From assembly GCA_030295235.1 (NCBI GenBank), contig AP026164.1, positions 682,001 to 746,000 of the forward strand: DNA of 64,000 bases, read 5' to 3'. The position numbers were made by a program, and so were the translations under genes. This document shows positions 11,016-30,778 of the stretch, piece by piece. The notes below the pieces were generated by a model. That model had not been told where the DNA came from. It made no database searches and saw only the letters and a list, made by a program, of their open reading frames with translations. The stretch's first letter is position 1, and the number at the start of each line of letters is the position of its first letter. The DNA is from Fistulifera solaris. Lineage: Eukaryota.

Positions 11016-11391
11016 CTATGTTTTAACTGCATCAAGGGTTTTGAGTAGGGTGCCTACGTGAATTTCAGTAGACATTTGAAGCGTTGTATCTTCTCTCTTT
11101 TCAGCGTTTTTTCTTACTGCAAATGAGCGATGTTGATGATGCAAGGGTTGATGGCATCGCAGTCAAAAATACCGGGTACAAGGTACCCGGCAAATGGATG
11201 GTGTCAATTGAAAAATATCCGGGTTTTCCTCTGTCGACAATAATTAATTACGTGAAATGCACGTAGACATGACGTTTCGAGTTTTTCGCTTATTGGTTTA
11301 TTTTCTGCATGTTGGTGAATTTCGATGATGATTTCGACGCAAATCAGACCGTGAACTAGAGTGTTGCTTGTAGCAGGAAAGAGAGACACGC

Positions 11392-11695
11392 ATGATGATC
11401 GTTTCGCTTACTAAACTCGTCGCGGCAACCCTCACAATTCTCATAACGACACTAGACGATTGTGTGTGGTTAGTACCCTTTGTCGCGAAACCAAATACTG
11501 CATTTTGTCATGGGAGTCTGTTTGTCGTAACGCTGACGAGCATGGCCATTCTCGTCACTGGAGCAACTTGCTTGTTTTCCAGTCGCTTGCCGGTTTCGGA
11601 ATTAGTTTTGCAGGGGACCGGGGCGCTCCTATGCTGGTTGCTGGCAGGATATCTTCTGCATCGTTCTCTGGAAAAACAAAGAAGACGACAACAGC

Positions 11696-11726
<31 letters not shown>

Positions 11727-12090
11727 GCAATCTTTTGAGCCAAATGAAGAAGTTCCTCTCGTTACGCCGCCCAGCAGTCAAGTTAGTGCCATTGATGACG
11801 ACGTCTCACAACCATGGATGGTTGTAACACTGACATTCGTTGGAAGTCTCGATGAGATTATGTACTTTCCCGGACTTTTGCTAGGACAATTATTTACAGC
11901 ATGGGAGTTGTGTCTGGGTGCATGTTTGGCGGGATGCATCATGCTCCTTGTGGTGTTGACTTGTCTACGACAAAGTCAACCTTTGATGAACTTTCTGGAT
12001 CGTATCCCATTGTACGCTGTTGTAGCCGTCTTTGCGGTTGTTATGACAGTGCAATCAATTCAGGAATGGGGGTCTGAAATGCGGCATTAG
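11392..12090 (+). CDS. CadD-like (LysE superfamily) 6-TM membrane protein with polyQ loop
   Basis: Two 3-TM halves starting TTLDDCVWLVPF and GSLDEIMYFP, resembling CadD TNIDD/GGDN motifs. Confidence 0.6.
11689..11730 (+). repeat. (CAA/CAG)14 microsatellite encoding polyQ
   Basis: Read directly from the sequence. Confidence 0.95.
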
Positions 12091-12815: not shown

Positions 12816-13158
12816 GCGAACGACGAAACGCGAAAATTATTGAGAATGGTATGGTGACTGGTGACGTACCATGAAAATATGGGCGTGTCGTGTTTTCACT
12901 TGCCCAGAAAATATGGGGGTGTGGTGTTTTCACGTACCCAGAAAATATGGGAGTGTGGTGTTTTCACGTACCCAGAAAATATGGGAGTGTGGTGTTTTCA
13001 CGTACCCAGAAAATATGGATGACTGGTGTTTTCACGTACCCGTAAAATATGGGCGTGTGGTGTTTTCACGTACCCAGAAAATATGGTGTTTTCACGTACC
13101 CGGAAAATATGGGCGTGTGGTGTTTGTGCGAACGACGAAACGCGAAAATTTCTTGAGA
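12816..13158. repeat. 34 bp minisatellite (~8 units) flanked by a 23 bp direct repeat
   Basis: Unit TGGTGTTTTCACGTACCCAGAAAATATGGG(A/C)GTG spans ~12865-13125. GCGAACGACGAAACGCGAAAATT occurs at 12816 and 13128. Confidence 0.92.
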
Positions 13159-13498: not shown

Positions 13499-13580
13499 CC
13501 AGAAAATCTGTGTGTTTGAAATTTCAGACTTTCCAGAAAATCTGTGTGTTTGAAATTTCAGACTTTCCAGAAAAATCTGG
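13499..13580. repeat. Second 34 bp tandem repeat (2 full copies plus a partial)
   Basis: CCAGAAAATCTGTGTGTTTGAAATTTCAGACTTT twice, then CCAGAAAAATCTG. Confidence 0.9.
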
Positions 13581-13773
13581 GGGACGTCTTACGTGCAATG
13601 AGGAATTATTCCCTTATCATGTCCTTACCAGGTAACCTTACCTTTTCCGCCTATCACGGGCGCTGCCACAATCGCATTGCATGAGTACACTTCTGCGGCA
13701 TCGCACAGCAATACCTTATTTCATTTGATATTTTTTGTTTTTACAAATTGCAATGATTGTGATTTAACGTTCT

Positions 13774-14957
13774 ATGATGAAGCTTCTTCTTCTTCTTCTC
13801 ATCTTGTGTCCGGCTGTAACGGCATGGATACCCCGAAAGGACCCGACACGGGAGAAAGGGTGCACTTATCTTCAGTCGTCCTCGTTGGAGACGAACCATC
13901 TTCTTGGCACTGATTCTTATACACCAGTCTTTCATTTCTCCCGACCCGAGGCCCTTGAGATGATGGGTCGTCTCGATGATGCGATCATGGGAGGTATCAG
14001 TACCAGCAGTCTGGCTTTTTTCTTCCGACGGCTTTACCCGATGGGGCGGGGTATGCCGCACCGATGGTGGAGGATTCTGTGGCTTTCGTTCGAACCCATT
14101 TCGTCAACCTCTTCAAGTGGCCGATGCCGACGGATTTTATCTCATTGGTCGTCTAGCGAGTGATCTGGAACCCGAGAGGCGAGTGTGGAAATTCAGTACC
14201 CGAACCAAACCGGATCGTGGGGAAGTCGTTTATCAGGCACCGTTCTCGTTTCCCAAAAATCAGTCGGCTTGGCATCGTGTGAATATACCGTTTGACGACT
14301 TTTGTTTAGTTCGCGGTCCTCGTATCGTGCCGAATGGTCCTCTTCTGAACACGACCGGAGGTATCTATCAAGTTGGAATGACCATGAGTAAGTTCGTTTT
14401 CGGAACCAATACCACCGAACTGACCGATTTTCGGGATGGATTCTTTGAGGTCCAACTCAAGGAAATTGGCTTATACAAGCGGCAACAACAGTTATCTAAA
14501 AACGAGCTGATAATAAAATCGCCACAAGTTCTTTCCGAGTCGGAGTTCAAGAAGCAACAGCCGCTGATATTAAAGCTTATGGTTCCACTCTTTCGTTTGC
14601 TGTTCTCTGAGTCAAGGTAGGACCTACATTTTTTGAACTGGTCGTTGCGATACTTAGTTGCGCTTACTCGATTTTCGTTATTTGCAAAGTCGACGTCGTA
14701 AATCGGCCATGAGACATTTGAGGGAGCGTCGAGGACTTTCCAGAGGTCGGGCCATTTGGTTGGGCTACGCAATCGAGCCAAAAGCGTTGGCCTTGTCAGA
14801 TCCCCTGATCACCACGATTTCCATTCTTGCAGCGGATTCTCTGAGAATTATTCTGACAATAGCTATTCGTCTTGTTGTGCAGTACCCACTCTTTTTGCTC
14901 GGGAAGGGAATGCGTGTTCTCCGTCGCGAAAAACGAAATCCAGCCACGAGCTTGTAA
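13774..14957 (+). CDS. CIA30 (complex I intermediate-associated protein 30) domain protein with signal peptide
   Basis: RLDDAIMGGISTS, GGGFCGFRS, YQAPF, VNIPFDDF motifs. Signal VTA-WIP; frameshift near 14020; intron ~14617-14689. Confidence 0.75.
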
Positions 14958-15023
14958 ATAAGGTTGTGCTATGATGTTTTTTAATTAGCGGTTATAAGAG
15001 ATTGCTGCTGTGGCTAAGTCAAA

Positions 15024-18000
15024 CTACGGCGCTTTCTTTAAATTCCCCTTGTTTGCTGTAGATGACGAGGGATTGACTCCGTTGTAATTAAAGGGGTTCA
15101 TCCCGAACGCTTGGGGATTGAAAACAGGTCCTCCCGTGTACGTTGGTAAATTAGGAGGAAATTGTGAGACGGGGTTACCATTCAATCCGCCGCCGCGATT
15201 GTAGTTTACCCCATAGCTTTGGTTGAAAACATTAAAACAGTACGGATTGCTGTACGGGCCAAAGTTGATCAATCTATTGCTGTCCTGTGTCTGTGTAGTG
15301 TGGACGCTTTGTACCCCACTACTGCGTTGGCTCGTCAGGGGTGCCAGCGGGTTTGCACTATTGCTAGAGCGCGCTGGAGAAGCCCCCGATGAGGTATGCG
15401 ATTGTCCCACCATAAAATTGTTCAATGACGGAGTCATGCTTGTATTCTGCTTGATTGTATCGGGCTGGGGTGAGCTCGCGGTACCGGGATTCGATGCCTG
15501 TCCATTGATTGCGCTCAACAACAAATCCAAGCCATTCGAACTGGGTTGTTCTTTACTGGTCTGGTCGGCGTGTTCATCTGATCCGACGTCCCCTGTAAGT
15601 TCCTTCGAGTTCTTTGCCTTGCGATTGAAGGGTCTAACGCGCGATAAATTGTCGAGGTTGAGCCATTCGCTGAGTTGTGGGTTTATCCGAGGAAAATGGA
15701 ACAGAGCACGTTTGCCCTTCTCGGTCTGTTCAATTTGCTCGACAACGGCCACGTTCCAACGAAGTGCCCCCTCGCGATGAACATCATAGACATCTGAAAA
15801 TATCGAAATTAGGGTGGCGATCCGGAATCCTGGCAACACTTCGAAACGTAAGCGAGATCCTTACCACCTTCTTCCATTGTCTCCACGTCCACTATTGTGG
15901 GACATCTAGCAGTCTTTAGACTAAAAGCACTGTTGGGCTGCTGGTTGGTCCTCGGCTTGTATGGCTTTATTTTGTTTGTATCAAAGTCGCACCACTCGCT
16001 AACGGGTGGGTTCGTTCTAGGAAAGAAGAATAAAACGCGCTTCCTGTCTTCCGTAAATTCAGATTCTTTTACTACACCAATGCTATAACGCATCAGACTG
16101 TCGCGGAAAACATCAAAAACATCTGCCACATTCAAATTAAGATGACGATTCAATTTAGTCGTAACAACGTCGAACTGTATTCAAATTACTTACCACCCTC
16201 TTCAATAGTCTCCGCATCTACAGTAGAAGGGCACCTAGCTGTCTTCAAACTGAAAGCGCCGTTCTCTTTATTGCTTCTCGGCTTGTATGGCTTGATTTTC
16301 TTTGTGTCGAAATCGCACCATTCGCTAACCTGCGGGTTTGTCCGAGGGAAGAGGAATAAAACGCGCTTCCTGTTCTCAGTAAAATCAATTTCTTTCACCA
16401 CTCCAATGCTAGACCGCATCATACTAGCGCGGTAAACGTTGAAAACGTCTTCAAGCGATCAAAGTAAGTCGGTCCATCTTAAAACTTTGCAAAACGTTCG
16501 AAAAATTTTGCAATACTTACCGCCTTCTTCGATAGTCGCAGCATCTACAGTGACGGGACACCTTGCAGTCTTAATACTGAACACACCGTTCTCCTTGTTG
16601 GCTCTCGGCTTGTAAGGTTTAATCCTATTCGTATCGAAGTCACACCATTCGCTTAGTTGTGAATTCGCCCGCGGAAAGTGAAATAAAACGCGCCTCCTGT
16701 CCCCAGCAAACTCAATTTGCTTTACTACACCCATGCTAGCCCGCTTGACACTCTCGCGGTATACATCAAAAACATCTTGAAACAACGGTTTAGTCGCGCA
16801 TTCTCAGATTCTTTAGTGTCTGGACGTAATCGTTACTTACCACCCACTTCGATTGTCTCTTCATCCACAGTTTGGGGGCACCTTGCAGTCTTTAAATTGA
16901 AAGCGTTGCTCGGTTGCTTGTTGGCTCTAGATTGATAAGGTCTGATTTTCTTTAAGTCGAAGTCATACCATTCGGTGATCTGGGGATTCGCCCTAGGGAA
17001 CCGAAACAAAACGCGTCTTTGGTCGTCCTTTACTTCAGTTTGCACAACTACACCCGTGCTAGTCCGCCTGATGACATCCCGGTACACAGCAAAAACATCT
17101 TTATAGAAGGCAATTGTTAGTTCCGAACGTCAAACAACAAAAAACCCAAGATTACGTCACTTACCACCAACTTTCATGCTTTCATATTCCACAACAACGG
17201 GGCATCTAGAATTCTTCAAACTGAAACCGTCGACAGAATCTCTGCTCTTTCGAGGTCGATGAGTTCTGATTTTTCGACTGTCGAAATCGTGCCACTCACT
17301 GACATTAGTCCTCGGAAAGTGAAATAGAATGCGCTTCCTTTCTTCATCGATGTCTAACCGTTCTACCACACCAACACTAGCACGCGCATCACCATCGCGA
17401 TAAACGTCGAAAGAAACTTAACGTGAAGGAGAAAAAGGTAAGCCAACATTTCGTTCCAGGAAATGATAGTCAAGTTACATACCACCAATCTTGATGTCCT
17501 TTGGATTGACGACGGAGGTAGCATTCGCTTCTTGCTGCCCGATTGTGTCGTAATTGTCGCTTTGAGTCTGCAGAATGGAGTGCTTTGCTTTCTTGGGGAC
17601 ATGTGTGTGCAGCCGAGCTATTCTCTCTGAACCAAAATCAATCCACTCGTCAAATTTTCTTGACAGCTTTGGAAAATGAAATTGAATACGTTTGATTTTA
17701 CCCGAGAAATCGACTTTTGATACGACACCGACTTCATATTTCTCCTTATCATGTCGACGAACGTCAAATCGAGCTGAAAAAACACATAATTAGTCTGTTT
17801 GAGTAAAAACAAAAATTGAAAGGTGAACGTACCTCCAATAGTAAAGCTTTTTTTCGTCAAGAGGTGACGCACTACTGTCTCGTTTTCGCTTCTTTATAGG
17901 AGATCCCTCCACTTTGCCATTCGCATCGACCAGGGAGTCGTTAGCATCCCAATCATCTTCAGGAGCATCACAAGAGTTCGCAAGAGGATTCCAGATGTTA

Positions 18001-21000
18001 TCCTTACAGTAAAATTTCTCAGGCAGTAAGTCCACATCCACATGCCAAGGAATCTTCCGCCATTTCATGCAGTCAGCGCTCTCGCACTGTACCCACGTAG
18101 AAACAGCTTGAGCTGGACGTCCTCTATCAACCGACGAAAGAAGACCACCCACAGAATTTCTCGCTGCTACCTTTTCTTCGGCATCAAGCATATTCAGTAC
18201 ATCATGAATGTTTGACTCGTCACCTGTGACAAGAAAATCTAAAATAGGCGACCCAAATGGTTGCATGCAGCTATTGTCCAGCTTCGACAGCTCTTCACTT
18301 TCTACGGTAAAAGCCTGTCGAATTTCTTCTGGCCACGGACTACCCCTTTGGAATGGATCTTGAAACCATTCGATCAGACGCGGCCGTACCTTTGACTCGT
18401 AAAGGGTCTTTTTCTCTGGTTTACGCCTGCGTTTTGCAATGGAGCTCCTCCAACAACCGTCGATTGAAGGGAGCATAACACAGCCTAAAAAGATCAGGGA
18501 GGCCTTGCTTTTGACCTATACCTCCGTTGTACCATTGCAAGAGTTGAGACAAAACGTAGTCACCTTCGTACCTCACTGTTACACTAGCAACAATGTCATC
18601 GGGTCGACATATCATAGTAGAGTTCTTGTCTTCAAATCTCCTCTCACATATATTCTCGTTCTTTTCATCGGTGATTCTTGAAGCATCAACAACCTCATCG
18701 ATAACAGACAACGGTACGCTATTTCCGATCTCTCTAGCGTAAACGTCGACAGGGCTTGACTCGAGAGGTTGGTACGCTTTCATGGTGAAGAAATTACTTG
18801 TGTGAGCATAGAGAAGAAGCGCATCTGCAGCAGCCTGCAAGGAAAATCTTTGATCGTAATGCAACAACCATGACGAATTTGCAGGGCTTCCGCACGTTTT
18901 CCTAGGTGCACCTTCCTCATCGTTCTTGTGGTTTGACTCGCCTGATCCCTTGTCGCCAATCATATTGTTACTCCCTGATTGAGATTCACTATCCACAGGT
19001 ACACCGATAGATTCCTCTGTCACAACGGCTGGTAAGACCGTTTGGATGTCTCTGGTAATAGCATTGCCACTGGAAACGACGGCAGGTTTGATGACGTTCC
19101 TTTCTTCGGGCGGCAAACCATTATTCTTCCCTTTCCTTAGAATCTGATAGCTCGACACACCGCTTTCATTCTCGACCGAGAAATCTTTTTCCTCGCTGAG
19201 AACGCCAATGGGCGGAGGGCCGTTATCGTCACCGCTTCGGACATCCTCATCAGACAGATCCATATGGTCTGTGGGCAACACAACCGCATTTTCGCCTCTA
19301 TCCGCAGCTCCTTTCGTCAACGACCTTGAGCGACGAAACTCCCTGGCCATATCCTTCAGTTCATCCAATATAATTTCGCGCATATCCAGTAAAGCATTTT
19401 TTAGCTGAAGTCTGCCTTCGATGCCTTTTGACGAAGACGAGCCAGAAACTGTCGTTTCTATTGACGGATCCCTGAAATCTGCAAGAAACGCATACTTCTC
19501 CTTTCGTAACTGATCTAGTCGTTCAATCAATGACGGTCTGGAGGACTGGGCTTCCCTTGCAGAGCGTAGCAGCGTTTGAACTGCCCCCATTTCACTACTC
19601 CACATCCAGTTCACAACGGCTTCATCCGACAATAGAGAAATGGGAGCGTGAATAATTTGGCGCAAAGTCTGCAAATCTGGAGCCGATTTGCCTTCCGTTG
19701 ATGCCTCTAATACACCCTCTCGATGACGGTCCAGTACACGCCCAACTCTATTGAGGCTTTGCGTTAATTGCTGAATGCGTTGCTCCATGGCTGAAACACC
19801 TTCAGCGTCGGCATCTTCAAAAGATATTTTGGACGAAAACAACACATCTTGAATATCTGGACCACCAAAACGTTTTTTCATTCCTTTGTCTCTCTGTTGA
19901 CTTGACTGAACTTTGGACTTGCCGCTCACTTCAGCGCCATCTCGTTTCCGCAGATCCTCGCTCAAAAGCCAAACTTTCTTTTTTTTCCTCGTACTCCGTT
20001 TGTGCACGCTTCTTCCATATATTTTTCTTCTCTTCACTCATCTTCTGCCATAAATTTGAAGCCAACTTTTTTACCGCGCCTTTGAGCTCCAAACCACTCA
20101 GTGATTGGTACACAGGATCTTTTCTTAAAAGAGATAGCAAATAAGTGTTTTCAACTCTCGAGTAACAGAAAAAAGCAGGCTCGCGTCCGGGAGGTTTAGA
20201 CGTCTGCGAAACAGCTATTGCCGGGTCCTTTTCTTGACGAGCCGATGACAGGTGATCACAAATCAGCGAAATTGGCAACGCTCTTCTTTCATACTCGATA
20301 TACCGTAGAGTGTCTGCAACGTAAGTTTTGAGCCAAACTGGAACCAAATCCAACGAATCCATAAGCGAGCTCTTGCCCCCAATAGAAAATTCTACGCGAC
20401 GATTGACACTTATTGCACCAAAGGCAGCCGTGTTGAAACCATGATTTCGCAGGACTCGTTCATCGTCATCTGACATGACTTGCTTCGTCGACCCCTTTAC
20501 CAGATTCGAAAATCTTGTAGCAATCGGTGCGTTTCTGTTCAAGACTTGCTGATAGCAATCGGCGGTCGCGAAATGCAGAAACGACCCGCGACATTTTCCG
20601 TAGCCGCACAAGCACACCGCGGATTTGTATTCATTCAAAGATTCTGTTACTGCGTGGTAATCAAAGGTCAACTCCTCGCCCATTTCAAGTTCACGAAGTG
20701 TTGTCATTGCCAAACACAATTCACCATTCTTAGCTGCTACTCGCACCTCGCAAGTCGGGTCGCAGCTGTGTGAGAGAGAAGAACCGTAGCCAGCCTTTCG
20801 GGACGCATCAACAAACAGTAGACCATAGCCACGAGGATCAATTTGAGGCCGCTCTAGGGCCATGTTGTAAAAATCTGGTAAAGCTGGCTTGAGATTCTTC
20901 CGATCTTGCGTCATCGATATTGCATCCATTTTCTCACCCCATCTCCAAGATGGATAAAGCTCTCCACGGTAGAAAGTTACCAACCTGTTCGCATCAACTT

Positions 21001-23677
21001 GCTGGCTTAGTAAGACAGACCCATGACCTTTGGGATGAATCCGAAAAAATTTGGTCCGAGACAGGATCGAGCCTGTCGTAACTCAAAAGCCGCAGCCTTC
21101 AACCAAGGAGGTGACGCAGCTTCAATTTTTCTGCGGAGAGCAGCACCGAGAATGGTTTGCTGATCACTTTGATCTTGGCAAGGAGCATCGAGAGAGCATT
21201 CGTCATTTTCGTCATTCAGAGGCAGCCCCTCTAAGAGTTTGGCAGCATTCCTAATATCCTGTGCGTACTCGACAGGACATGCATTGATCGCCGGCAGCAA
21301 CCATTTTTCAACAAATTGAAGCGAAGTGCGTGGATCGAATTCAATTTGCAGGCAAGCCGTGATGTTACGCCGGGTGTAGCAATCGATGCCCCAGACAGGT
21401 TGCTCAACAATTTCTGGAGGAGCTTCACTTTCCAACGACTCGTCTTTCGTCGCTCCGTCGTTCATACTTTCATGATTTTCGCGCCTTTTCCAGTTCACGC
21501 TGCTTATTTCTGCTTGGCTCAGTACCTGCTTTTCTGTGAGCACTTTGTCTTGAACACCGATCAAAAGCGATTGCATTGACGCTACAACTTGTGCACGGGT
21601 TACTCCATCATCCGCCGATAAAGCAAGAGCCGCTTGTCTAACCTTGTCTCTAGATTTCCCGTTTAATGCAGTTTCATCAACAACAGACTTCATCCAAGCT
21701 TCGCTCTGGCCGGTATCGTCATAACGATAAGCAAGACCAACAAAACTATCCTTCAAACTTGTTTGTCGCTCGTAGATTGCGATTTCTTTGTCTACCTTCG
21801 AAAGGCCGTCACAAACAGTGTCGGCTGACAATCTTTCATATAAACGTTCGGGAAAAGGGCCTTCTCGATGACTTTGCATCGCTGCCTCCTTGTTCTCGCT
21901 ACGCTCTATAGCAGCTAAGAACTTGTGTACGCCATCTGCAATGGTCATTTCTTGCATCTGCTTACGTCCTGTTCGTTCAAACGCTTGAAGCATTTGCTGA
22001 AACGATATTATAAGGCCAAATCGTTCATTCCGCAAGCTCAATTTTTTCGTCACCCCACTTACCTCTTTTATTTTATTCGCTGCTGCAGTCATTGAAAATG
22101 AATCATTTTGATCGTCTGACTCCCGGTCTATTGCTGTGTCGCACATGGCCAAGACATCGTCGCGAAACCGATCCCAATTAACTCCTAGAGGATGCTTAAC
22201 TCTCGAATTAGGCTGACGCTTCTGAGTTTTCATTCCACCAGTTAGGTAATATCGGCGGGGTTTCTTGTCTAAAGTGTTGTAATAATCTTCCATAATATAA
22301 AAGCGATTGTCTTCCTCAACCTTCTCGCGATTCAAAACATAAAACCCTAGCTCCATGCGCCGTCGAATCATTTTCCAATTCAAAGGAGGAAACTCTGAAA
22401 GGTCGGGAGATGAATCGCCTTTCTTGTCATCAGTCGCTCTTTTAGACAAATGAGGACTGGAAGATTTGACCTCTAATGGTTGCGGAATCGACTTTGTTGG
22501 TGGCAGTGACGTAGATTGAGCGCCTGTCCCACTTTTTTCCGAAAGAATATTTTCTGGTGCACTTTGTCCGCTACCCTCCAATTTGGGAATGACATGAGCC
22601 GTAACATGCGACTCGTCATTTGCACGGTTAGGGCCACCCGCGCTGTCGTCGTCGTTGCCATTATCAGGATCTTCATCCGAGAAAAGTCTGTACTTATCCA
22701 CTTTTTTCTCCAAACGATCGATGATTCTCTCAAACTCTCTGCGGTGCTTCTCGTAAAGATCAAGCGCATGTGAGGACTCATTGGCATCCTTATTCGAACG
22801 AATTTCTTGTGCGTTCTGCTTTGCTTTCGGAACACGTTTCTCTTTTGTACTGGTGTGTTTTTCCTTTACAGCGCTTTGCTTCTCCTTCGCACCACTTTGT
22901 TTTCCCTTTGAAATACCTTTTCTTCTCCTTTGTACCACTTTGCTTTCTCAAATCAGTCACTTTCTCTATCGTGGATCGCTTTGGAAGACTTCTCATGAAC
23001 GTTAAAGGCCGTTTTGTTTCCTGAGGAGCATTCTCCTGTTCCACTTTAATTCTGGCATTTGAAACTTTTTCATGCTCCTCCATCGCTTGTTCAGGTTTTA
23101 CTGGTTCCTGGCTAGACCTGTCAGTGATACTTTCTGCTATCTTCTTGCGTTTCTTATCATCGTCTAGCTTTTTGGCGTCCTCTTCATATGATTCGGGTTT
23201 CCGACGCTTCCTGCTATTTCGTCGTCCTGAATTATCATCGATCATACCTTCCGCGGATGCAGTCGTGTGAACCAGATAGTCTCTTTGAATACGTGACGTT
23301 TTGCCTCCTTGAATGATCCACTCTACCGTATACAGTTGCTCGGTCGCACCGTCGGAAGCCTTATCGTCTACCTCGACAATCCGTCCCAACGATTTGTCGC
23401 GGTCTCGAAGACATTTCATATTCTGTGCACCCCTGGAGTATCAAGTAAGAAAAAACATTCAGCGAAAAAGAAAGAAGCTGAAACATTCATTTACGATAAC
23501 TACTTACACTGTAGACACTCGCACGAGATCTCCCCGTCGGAGAATACCCAAGAGCTTATAATTGTTTGCCGGTGCACTGACGTTTATCTGATTCCCACTG
23601 GACGCGTTGTTCGCAGAGCCAACGAATTTGCTATCTGATTTATCGTCATTGATCGTCGCCTCATTATTGTTCTCCAT
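15024..23677 (-). CDS. ATXR3: Large ATXR3/SDG2-like SET-domain histone lysine methyltransferase with bromo-like, HMG-box, zf-CW and seven C-terminal Tudor/chromo-barrel-like repeats
   Basis: WGIDCYTRRNI, GELYPSWRWGEKMD, PDFYNMALERP, SHSCDPTC, ELTFDYHAVTES, post-SET CLCGYGKCRGSFL match the ATXR3/SDG2 signature. zf-CW WVQCESADCMKWR..FYC..NSC. Assembled over several introns and frameshifts. Confidence 0.82.
15650..17773 (-). repeat. Array of seven homologous domain-encoding exons
   Basis: Exons 17483-17773, 17165-17416, 16841-17098, 16521-16775, 16194-16448, 15865-16122 and terminal exon from 15793. Each encodes approximately FDV.R....(G/A)VV.....R.LFHFP....EW.D(F/L)D. Confidence 0.9.
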
Positions 23678-24781
23678 GATAGTCGTCAAGGTGGACTTGA
23701 TGCATGCGTTATAGTGTCGGTCTTAATCAGCAATGCTGCGTCGATTGATGTCGTTCTTTCTCTTCTCGTTCGTCCGATACAGAGCAGCCAGAGCAACCAA
23801 CGAGCCAATGATTCGATACTTATAGTATTTTGAGAGCAATCGTTACTTATTTGGCTTTATTAGGAGCGAAAAGAAATGACTTCCTCACCTTACTTTCCTT
23901 GGACGCAGCAAGTTGCGGACGATTTTTTTTGTGTTAGCGAAAAGAAGGGGCGCGCCCAAGCGGGAAAGGACGGGGTGACAATATTGTCACCGACTACGAA
24001 CAGACGTCGATTTGTGTCGCTTCGAAGTTTACTATCTTGAGAAGTGAAGGAGAATCTTTCTTAGTGACTGACTCAACTGATTTTCAGTCCCGTAAGTAAT
24101 CGATCACCGATCGCAATCATAGTCGAATGCAGTGCTTCGCCCTCACAGAACTATTCATGATCCGTACCAGCTAGACATTACAAAGCAACTATAGTTAGTC
24201 ACATTCGTAATGGCTAGTTGCTGCTGATGAATTCCTCAGTATGAATCACGTCTCTTGTCATGGCTCGGGCTTGACTGAATTAAGTCCAGTCATTCATCGA
24301 TCGCATTTAGTCCAATGAATGACAGTATTAAAGAATTATTGATAACGCGGATGATACCTGGTTTCACGTGATAGGTGGCTCCACGGCGTCATATATTGAT
24401 AGATAAGAAGACTTCGTCTTGCCCTTTTCGATTAGGAGTAATCATGATTCTAGGAAGACTTTCCCAAACATCCGGTGTGGTCATGACAACTTCTTCATCG
24501 AAAAGCATTCGAAAATGTTTTCCGCGTCTCTCAATAAAATATCCGTTACCGTCGCGTCACAGAAACAGAGAAAGCTGAAAAAGAGCTGCCGACTCAACAA
24601 TCGAGTCGACAGAAATCCTGAAGCTACAGGTCGACTAGAAAAATTTCTCTTAAAACTGACTTTCAGAGCAATTAATAACAATGGTAAGTCATGACGTCTG
24701 TCTTTATATTAGCTGCTTCCGAAAGATTGAGCACTTTCGATTGGTCATTCATTCCGTAAGCTGACCCCAATATGCAGTGTC

Positions 24782-28571: not shown

Positions 28572-30778
<2,207 letters not shown>

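Follow-up and report, generated by a model that had tools for sequence, protein, structure and literature searches.

The 64,000-nucleotide stretch of Fistulifera solaris DNA analysed here (contig AP026164.1, positions 682,001 to 746,000; hereafter the window) carries on its minus strand a gene for a SET-domain methyltransferase with a CW-type zinc finger (zf-CW) and, behind it, an array of seven repeats encoded by consecutive exons. The gene is colinear by tblastn with P0160 (GAX16939.1), a 2685-aa F. solaris protein whose source names it a hypothetical or 'CW-type domain-containing' protein, from residue 1 at 23677 to residue 2685 at 15027. The predicted protein contains a SET domain followed by an SDG2_C region, the domains on which we base its membership of the SDG2/ATXR3 type. 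Judged from its translation, the gene encodes one SDG2/ATXR3-type SET protein, and the array is its C-terminal third. In one report, ATXR3/SDG2 of plants was assayed as an H3K4me1/2/3 methyltransferase (PMC12744764), and by analogy with this family member the window enzyme would be an H3K4-type writer. The zf-CW of the window matched the CW fingers of MORC3 (E = 3.9e-9) and ZCWPW1 (E = 2.1e-8) in a phmmer search, and its Cys residues and both Trp residues are conserved in the MORC3 alignment, which places it in the zf-CW family. The CW fingers of MORC3 and ZCWPW1 read H3K4 methylation.

An earlier note on this DNA, made from its letters alone, had described six internal exons and a terminal exon after the zf-CW, and scripted location of donors and acceptors reproduced the lengths given there for the internal exons and supplied the exon coordinates (Table 1). 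We refer to the exons as E1 to E7 and to the repeats that they encode as R1 to R7. All seven introns of the array are GT..AG introns of 59-72 nt, and each splits a codon after its first base, right behind a Gly codon. The statement that every intron is in phase 1 and falls at the same point of the repeat therefore holds, in the case of intron 0 once an extra base at 17848 is removed. The boundary had also been rendered as ..GG G|gta; this was correct for the nucleotides (..GGT G|gt) but not for the protein, where a single Gly is followed by a split codon for A, V or D. Joints in the sequencing contigs described below revealed two further introns of the gene, at 21997-22062 and 23432-23506, and the last 2.8 kb of the gene holds seven of the nine introns observed in it. 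The tail encoded by E7 (15027-15614, minus strand) consists of 15% S, 13% N, 10% G and 10% P with scattered F and Y, and may be a low-complexity interaction region. Both the tail and a short Leu-rich motif are kept in the relatives P0007, P0008, P0152, P0153 and P0160.

Table 1. Features of the SDG2/ATXR3-type gene, in window coordinates, with the residues of each repeat at the four mappable positions of the aromatic cage (profile positions 13/33/36/40).
Feature	Position	Strand	Basis	Residues at 13/33/36/40
Whole gene, SDG2/ATXR3-type SET methyltransferase with zf-CW and seven-barrel tail	about 15024..23677	minus	tblastn colinearity with P0160	
SET domain	20657..20890	minus	Pfam PF00856, E = 1.5e-9, residues 65-142 of open reading frame 19934-21082	
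SDG2_C, first and second part	20243..20620 and 18718..18840	minus	Pfam PF19633, E = 1.7e-12 and 3.1e-9	
zf-CW finger	17955..18098	minus	Pfam PF07496, E = 2.8e-16; 59.7 bits against a cut-off of 27.5	
Intron 0, 59 nt, between zf-CW exon and repeat 1	17774..17832	minus	GT..AG; joint 17773/17833 in X2, X3, X4	
Exon E1, 291 bp: repeat 1 (ancestral-type barrel) and long linker	17773..17483	minus	scripted donor/acceptor location	E / F / L / F
Intron 1, 66 nt	17417..17482	minus	GT..AG; skipped in contigs	
Exon E2, 252 bp: repeat 2	17416..17165	minus	scripted donor/acceptor location	S / F / T / V
Intron 2, 66 nt	17099..17164	minus	GT..AG; skipped in contigs	
Exon E3, 258 bp: repeat 3	17098..16841	minus	scripted donor/acceptor location	S / F / A / I
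Intron 3, 65 nt	16776..16840	minus	GT..AG; skipped in contigs	
Exon E4, 255 bp: repeat 4	16775..16521	minus	scripted donor/acceptor location	S / F / A / L
Intron 4, 72 nt	16449..16520	minus	GT..AG; skipped in contigs	
Exon E5, 255 bp: repeat 5	16448..16194	minus	scripted donor/acceptor location	S / F / T / V
Intron 5, 71 nt	16123..16193	minus	GT..AG; skipped in contigs	
Exon E6, 258 bp: repeat 6	16122..15865	minus	scripted donor/acceptor location	S / F / T / V
Intron 6, 71 nt	15794..15864	minus	GT..AG; skipped in contigs	
Terminal exon E7: repeat 7 barrel (about 15615-15793), 196-residue tail, stop codon	15793..15024	minus		N / F / I / L

We aligned contigs from four public sequencing runs of one study (X1-X4) to positions 14500-24500 of the window. 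The runs are not on record as RNA, and we guessed their type from the introns of their contigs. Contigs from X1 run through the introns (one, for example, spans 16991-17982 free of gaps), and contigs from X2, X3 and X4 lack precisely the seven predicted introns, whose ends read CT..AC on the plus strand. Because introns are kept in the X1 contigs and missing from those of X2-X4, X1 is probably genomic and X2-X4 are probably derived from transcripts. In one X2 contig, E3, E2 and E1 are continuous with 150 nt of the zf-CW exon, and the array is thus not a separate gene. This joint and the colinearity of P0160 bear out the proposal that the array shares one gene and one transcript with the zf-CW and the SET domain. 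The joints listed for the X2-X4 contigs are solely between consecutive exons, with no exon-skipping junction among them, in contigs that drop rare isoforms.

Two local differences were observed in these contigs. At the E6/E5 junction (16123-16199), an X3 contig has four other letters at the end of exon 5, with no exon skipped. These letters amount to two synonymous differences that make the end of exon 5 identical to the end of exon 4, and could represent an allele, gene conversion between repeats or an assembly chimera. Within E3, six transitions fall in 57 bases (16923-16979) in contigs of X2, X3 and X4 but not X1; they may reflect a second allele or homeologue expressed in X2-X4, or a repeat-induced misplacement.

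The window sequence also breaks the reading frame of the gene at three sites, and extra bases in the window explain all three. Base 17848, in a T-run, is left out in four of four runs and puts the zf-CW exon out of frame with R1; the other extra single bases are 19979, again left out in all four runs, and 18487, left out in X1. P0154 and P0160 read through these sites in the frame that makes intron 0 phase 1. A 37-nt intron was considered for the frame change near 18487 and rejected, as X1 lacks one base there and the relatives read through. Single-base indels between the window and the runs were found at 14802, 17458, 17848, 18487, 19979, 21046, 22041, 22918 and 23868, three of the nine breaking the frame of the gene, and they look like homopolymer assembly errors or strain differences.

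Over 85 alignment columns, the exon products of the array share 30-73% identity with R4, and this alignment essentially recovered the repeat consensus of the earlier note. The most distant pairs are related by BLASTP at E = 2e-15 (R1 against R4) and E = 6e-11 (R7 against R1). No eighth copy was found in the window by a profile of the seven repeats (next best E = 0.31). Tandem Repeats Finder detected no DNA-level tandem repeat in 14900-18000, because the copies are too diverged for it, with exon-exon nucleotide identities of 53-76%. Identities between introns were 0.50-0.67, compared with a shuffle level of 0.56 ± 0.04. Among R3-R6, the ratio of nonsynonymous to synonymous substitution rates (dN/dS) was 0.05-0.22, with dS above 1.2 and synonymous sites saturated or nearly so; the linker of about 30 residues that follows the barrel gave 0.08-0.23, a constraint equal to that on the barrel. 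Judging from these substitution patterns, the duplications are old and the copies are under purifying selection.

The repeats had been proposed to follow a Tudor-knot/chromo-barrel pattern. AlphaFold2 models of single repeats gave five-stranded barrels of the Royal type, with strands at residues 2-6, 11-23, 26-32, 41-45 and 51-53 in R4 and R1. The predicted local distance difference test (pLDDT) score was 95-97 over residues 1-50 of R1 and 92-95 for R4, and the linker was modelled at low confidence (pLDDT 51-70). When the seven-repeat profile was compared with the PDB, eight of nine matches were to Tudor-1 of PHF20L1 or PHF20 (best E = 0.0014), and the six best matches of R1 alone among solved structures were all PHF20L1 Tudor-1 (E = 0.022-0.033). 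A 49-sequence family profile matched 31 solved structures, of which 30 belong to the Royal family; these 30 include PHF20L1, Eaf3, MOF, MRG2, Esa1 and L3MBTL1, and the best match was the MBT domain of L3MBTL3 (E = 4e-4).

Searches by fold pointed to the same domains. VIA-align gave Z 7.4 to the MRG2 chromodomain, with a root-mean-square deviation (rmsd) of 1.6 over 51 residues, Z 7.2 to PHF20L1 Tudor-1 and Z 7.0 to MRG15. When VIA-align was run independently of Foldseek on 48,161 chains, the top 10 were all Tudor, chromo-barrel or PWWP domains (best Z 7.1, rmsd 1.6 over 51 residues). Foldseek placed PHF20, PHF20L1, RBBP1, TIP60, MRG15, MRG2 and MOF first, at E of at least 0.03; it returned no match at E ≤0.001 for the R1 or the R4 model, and no VIA-align match had Z ≥8. 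The R1 model superimposes on PHF20L1 Tudor-1 with an rmsd of 1.4-1.6 Å over 54 columns. In Pfam, R1 scored 13.0 bits against a gathering score of 20.8 for Tudor-knot (PF11717, E = 0.1) and 12.2 against 22 for MBT (PF02820, E = 0.23), and a scan of R2-R7 gave no Tudor-knot or MBT match. A protein-atlas look-up returned leads, all below 0.9, to Tudor-knot/MBT, MSL3 chromo-like, Spin-Ssty and PHF20L1. Because the sequence and fold searches agree, though no score is strong alone, we consider the assignment of the predicted barrels to the Royal family (Tudor / chromo-barrel / MBT-like) secure, in keeping with the pattern proposed. R1 had also been singled out as the most canonical repeat, which fits its grouping in the tree described below.

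PHF20L1/PHF20 Tudor-1 (6l0x, 3q1j, 3sd4, 2eqm), which came out as the best match by sequence for the repeat profile and for R1 alone, shares with the window repeats a five-stranded barrel (rmsd 1.4-2.0 Å over 53-54 residues) and an H-F...D-E-W core motif. It differs in copy number, two against seven in the window, and in setting, as PHF20L1 is a reader subunit of an acetyltransferase complex and the window array is C-terminal on a SET enzyme. The MBT domains of L3MBTL1 and L3MBTL3 likewise form tandem barrels in one chain, and two homologues of the repeats, P0009 (25.7 bits) and P0003 (23.9 bits), pass the MBT gathering score; however, the alignment covers the barrel core alone (about 30-40 residues), the window repeats stay below the MBT cut-off, and their positions aligned with MBT cage residues are not aromatic. 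The chromo-barrel or Tudor-knot domains of MRG15, MRG2, Eaf3, MOF, Esa1 and TIP60 provide the best fold matches and the top sub-threshold Pfam match of R1, and Pfam ascribes RNA-binding activity to Tudor-knot. Unlike the window repeats, which do not reach Pfam membership, the MRG/MOF-type barrels are single-copy and occur on acetyltransferase-complex proteins.

We searched 1.84 billion representative proteins with the seven-repeat profile (E ≤0.001) and found 152 proteins. Among the 150 matches listed, 138 have one copy of the domain, 11 have two and one has three; these counts are lower bounds, because many of the homologues are single-exon fragments. In a Pfam scan of 34 homologues, a zf-CW was detected in 17, each time with the barrel 23-84 residues behind it; in the window, the barrel of R1 starts about 40 residues after the zf-CW. 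Nine of the ten homologues of at least 1,700 aa in the scanned set also have SET and SDG2_C. The zf-CW and barrel occur with Homeobox_KN in P0083 and P0096 and with zf-CXXC in P0063. Because the barrel follows the zf-CW in 17 of 17 cases and across different proteins, the widely conserved unit is a CW-plus-barrel cassette. The homeobox and CXXC carriers also show a short SDG2_C-like stretch, and those other than the CXXC protein have Homeobox_KN domains (three or four), an HMG box or a WW domain; this distribution suggests that zf-CW plus barrel is a mobile chromatin-targeting module.

P0160 contains exactly seven contiguous repeats (1894-2504) with the predicted splice joins. Repeats of the same rank in the window and P0160 are 82-96% identical, and the SET region is 97% identical. 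We built a tree of 57 domain copies from 60 alignment columns, a length at which many forks lack resolution. R2-R7 of the window and P0160 form one group with copies from the close relatives P0001, P0002, P0005, P0007, P0008 and P0151, with a Shimodaira-Hasegawa approximate likelihood ratio test support of 99, and R1 groups with the copies of all other species. The repeats of the window and P0160 pair rank by rank, five of the seven pairs at a support of at least 95. On the sequences compared, R2-R7 are a derived, lineage-restricted subfamily.

Metagenome contigs aligned with R1-type repeats gave five loci, of which L001 alone was useful. This locus, at 49% identity, has the same phase-1 acceptor before the domain; its downstream sequence is too short for a repeat count. 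None of 93 pattern matches was confirmed among metagenome contigs aligned with R3-R6-type repeats. Many homologue fragments end at the same Gly with intron read-through. Because the L001 acceptor and the fragment ends share the phase-1 intron site, the symmetric exon is older than the expansion. Intron phase, intron position, lengths that are multiples of 3 and a flanking intron in relatives are all as expected for tandem duplication of a symmetric (1-1) exon. The origin by serial exon duplication put forward in the earlier note was thus supported, since the exon is symmetric (phase 1-1) and the same intron position flanks a single-copy domain in distant relatives.

Public models of the gene are split in a close relative, on a 43,004-bp contig that bears P0154, P0152, P0159 and P0162. 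There, a 1476-aa model ends after repeat 1 by intron read-through, single repeats have models of 84-92 aa of their own, and the terminal exon forms a separate model.

The earlier note had proposed that the array reads methyl-lysine. The cage of PHF20L1 Tudor-1 consists of Y24, Y29, F47, W50 and Y54, with D23 (bioRxiv 10.1101/2020.04.29.069500; PMC13285377), and the former states that Royal domains use three to five aromatics. From HMMER alignments, we mapped Y29, F47, W50 and Y54 to profile positions 13, 33, 36 and 40. Two of these four positions are aromatic in R1 and one in each of R2-R7 (Table 1): Y29 and W50 have no aromatic counterpart in any window repeat, and Y54 is matched in R1 alone. 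In 143 domain segments taken from the 150 homologues listed, aromatics are never common at position 36, and about one third of the segments have F or Y at position 40. On this evidence the canonical cage appears to be absent from the aligned repeats, which fall short of three to five aromatics with an acidic residue. Because one or two of the four mappable positions are aromatic, classical methyl-lysine reading is unsupported, least of all supported for R2-R7. The repeats are mostly basic, with net charges from R1 to R7 of +6, +2, +4, +4, +4, 0 and +3 and an isoelectric point of 8.9-9.7 in five of the six full repeat exons.

What the array binds, we infer from these features. The reading that we favour, and hold to be probable, is that it acts as a tether, multivalent and mostly basic, between an H3K4-type writer and chromatin or nucleic acid. 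The catalytic part is followed by a conserved chromatin module of two parts, the zf-CW and then a small Royal-family barrel (repeat 1). In the lineage of the window gene and GAX16939.1, the phase-1-bounded barrel exon was duplicated in tandem to give R2-R7, which became a distinct subfamily; all of them are expressed and maintained by purifying selection, and their splicing, as far as observed, is constitutive. Recognition of the mark would fall to the zf-CW, perhaps aided by repeat 1; avidity for nucleosomal DNA, RNA or some other repeated surface of chromatin would come from the chain of barrels; and the low-complexity tail would contribute weak contacts of its own. Together these parts would hold the writer on chromatin. 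Since most of the cage is gone from the barrels and most of the repeats are basic, the mechanism is probably not one of seven methyl-lysine pockets. PHF20L1 offers a precedent in that it, too, works as a tandem: according to PMC13285377, its single Tudors bind nucleosomes with a dissociation constant of 10^-4 to 10^-3 M, whereas for the tandem pair the value is about 5-8 x 10^-7 M with nucleosomes and with free DNA, the binding being cooperative in the case of DNA and without methyl selectivity. An elaboration of the tether would have the cage-less R2-R7 give up methyl-lysine reading and, in a chain of six or seven basic barrels that each bind weakly, clamp the writer on nucleosomal DNA or nascent RNA while the zf-CW reads the enzyme's own product, giving self-reinforcing spreading, with exon skipping able to trim the number of barrels in certain conditions; we put this forward tentatively and doubt that it holds.

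Several points weigh against a tether of this kind. By sequence, the solved Royal domains are matched at marginal E values (4e-4 to 0.03), the fold scores are middling (no Foldseek E ≤0.001 and no Z ≥8), as is usual for barrels of 55 residues, and none of the seven repeats reached a Pfam gathering score. Repeat 6 has no net charge, and the tether leaves the constraint on the linker, equal to that on the barrel, without explanation. The cage map comes from sequence alignment alone, and Y24 could not be placed on it. Of 133 family members, 90% have an aromatic at position 12, as do R1, R6 and R7, and position 5 is Y or F in R2-R6, so that aromatics beside the mapped positions could, by alignment, rebuild a pocket. 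Such a pocket would suit a classical multivalent reader in which seven working pockets read methylated nucleosome arrays. The fold and the nearest relatives, all of them methyl-lysine readers, are in line with this, as is the F at the PHF20L1 F47 position, which is invariant in all seven repeats; with its F at the Y54 position and the aromatic at position 12, R1 could reach three aromatics, within the three to five that Royal domains use. However, the equivalents of W50 and Y29 are aromatic in none of the seven repeats and that of Y54 in one, and the acidic residue before E-W, a D in 86% of the family, is replaced by S or T in R2-R7. We therefore consider seven working pockets unlikely.

The linker bears on the idea that barrels and conserved linkers form a rod or docking platform, for partner proteins (complex subunits, for example) or for self-association, with no direct contact to chromatin. 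Selection on the linker is as strong as on the barrel, yet its confidence is low when modelled alone, a combination that fits a segment folding on a partner, and the copy number is seven in both the window and P0160. No partner is known, however; the module comes after a chromatin-reading zf-CW in every case (17 of 17), and homeobox and CXXC proteins carry it too, which speaks for chromatin or DNA more than for a single enzyme complex and makes a pure scaffold distinctly improbable. It is very unlikely that cells tune the valency of the array by making isoforms with fewer barrels. Exon lengths in multiples of 3 and phases of 1-1 would permit in-frame skipping, but the joints of the X2-X4 contigs were solely the seven consecutive ones, plus the one X3 oddity at E6/E5, which is weak evidence from contigs that drop rare isoforms, and all seven copies are conserved one-to-one and constrained. 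Finally, loss of cage residues, and nothing more, would suggest that the extra exons are recent, neutral duplicates in decay, without a function of their own. This is scarcely credible: synonymous sites are saturated or nearly so at a dN/dS of 0.05-0.22, the introns have diverged to the shuffle level, every exon is spliced into the transcript and each copy has an orthologue in P0160 at 82-96% identity.

Known chromatin proteins resemble parts of the architecture. The SET and SDG2_C region is shared with Arabidopsis SDG2/ATXR3 and a Nannochloropsis homologue; the C-terminal zf-CW and barrel module, seen in nine of the ten long diatom-type homologues, is one that the plant SDG2/ATXR3 enzyme is not known to carry. 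ZCWPW1 and ZCWPW2 have a zf-CW followed by a PWWP domain, and SETDB1 is a SET writer with a triple Tudor of its own. The window protein resembles ZCWPW1 in that its CW finger, which matched that of ZCWPW1, adjoins a Royal-family barrel, and the Tudors of SETDB1 are among the fold matches of the window barrels. Unlike these proteins, the window protein has no PWWP features, and the number of barrels, their order and the catalytic family differ.

We came across no account of a diatom SDG2-CW-Tudor array in the literature searched, which did not extend to subscription journals. The fold is already known, as are Tudor and MBT arrays, including one on a SET enzyme, and the protein itself is public as a hypothetical one. 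The CW-plus-barrel cassette on diatom SDG2-type enzymes, the cage-less subfamily and the sevenfold expansion of a symmetric exon appear to be undescribed in that literature. Very little is known of how diatom histone writers are targeted, and a zf-CW with a divergent Tudor-like barrel is a concrete candidate module for it. Pfam models miss the window's own repeats, yet about 150 representative proteins carry the barrel, homeobox and CXXC proteins included. The growth to seven copies in one lineage offers a clean, dated example from a diatom of a domain array that grew by exon duplication. The analysis also corrects public annotation, as at least one related assembly splits the gene into truncated SET/CW, single-exon and terminal-exon models.

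Other repeats were observed elsewhere in the window. Two intergenic tandem repeats of period 34, at 12864-13125 (7.9 copies, 83% match) and 13499-13579 (2.4 copies, 97% match), lie upstream of a plus-strand gene at about 13768-14960 with a 73-nt intron (14614-14686). An ACA trinucleotide repeat of 14.3 copies at 11688-11730 encodes poly-Q in a plus-strand open reading frame (11374-12090), and the minus-strand open reading frame 29939-30778 contains a long Pro-Val/Pro-Ala dipeptide repeat.

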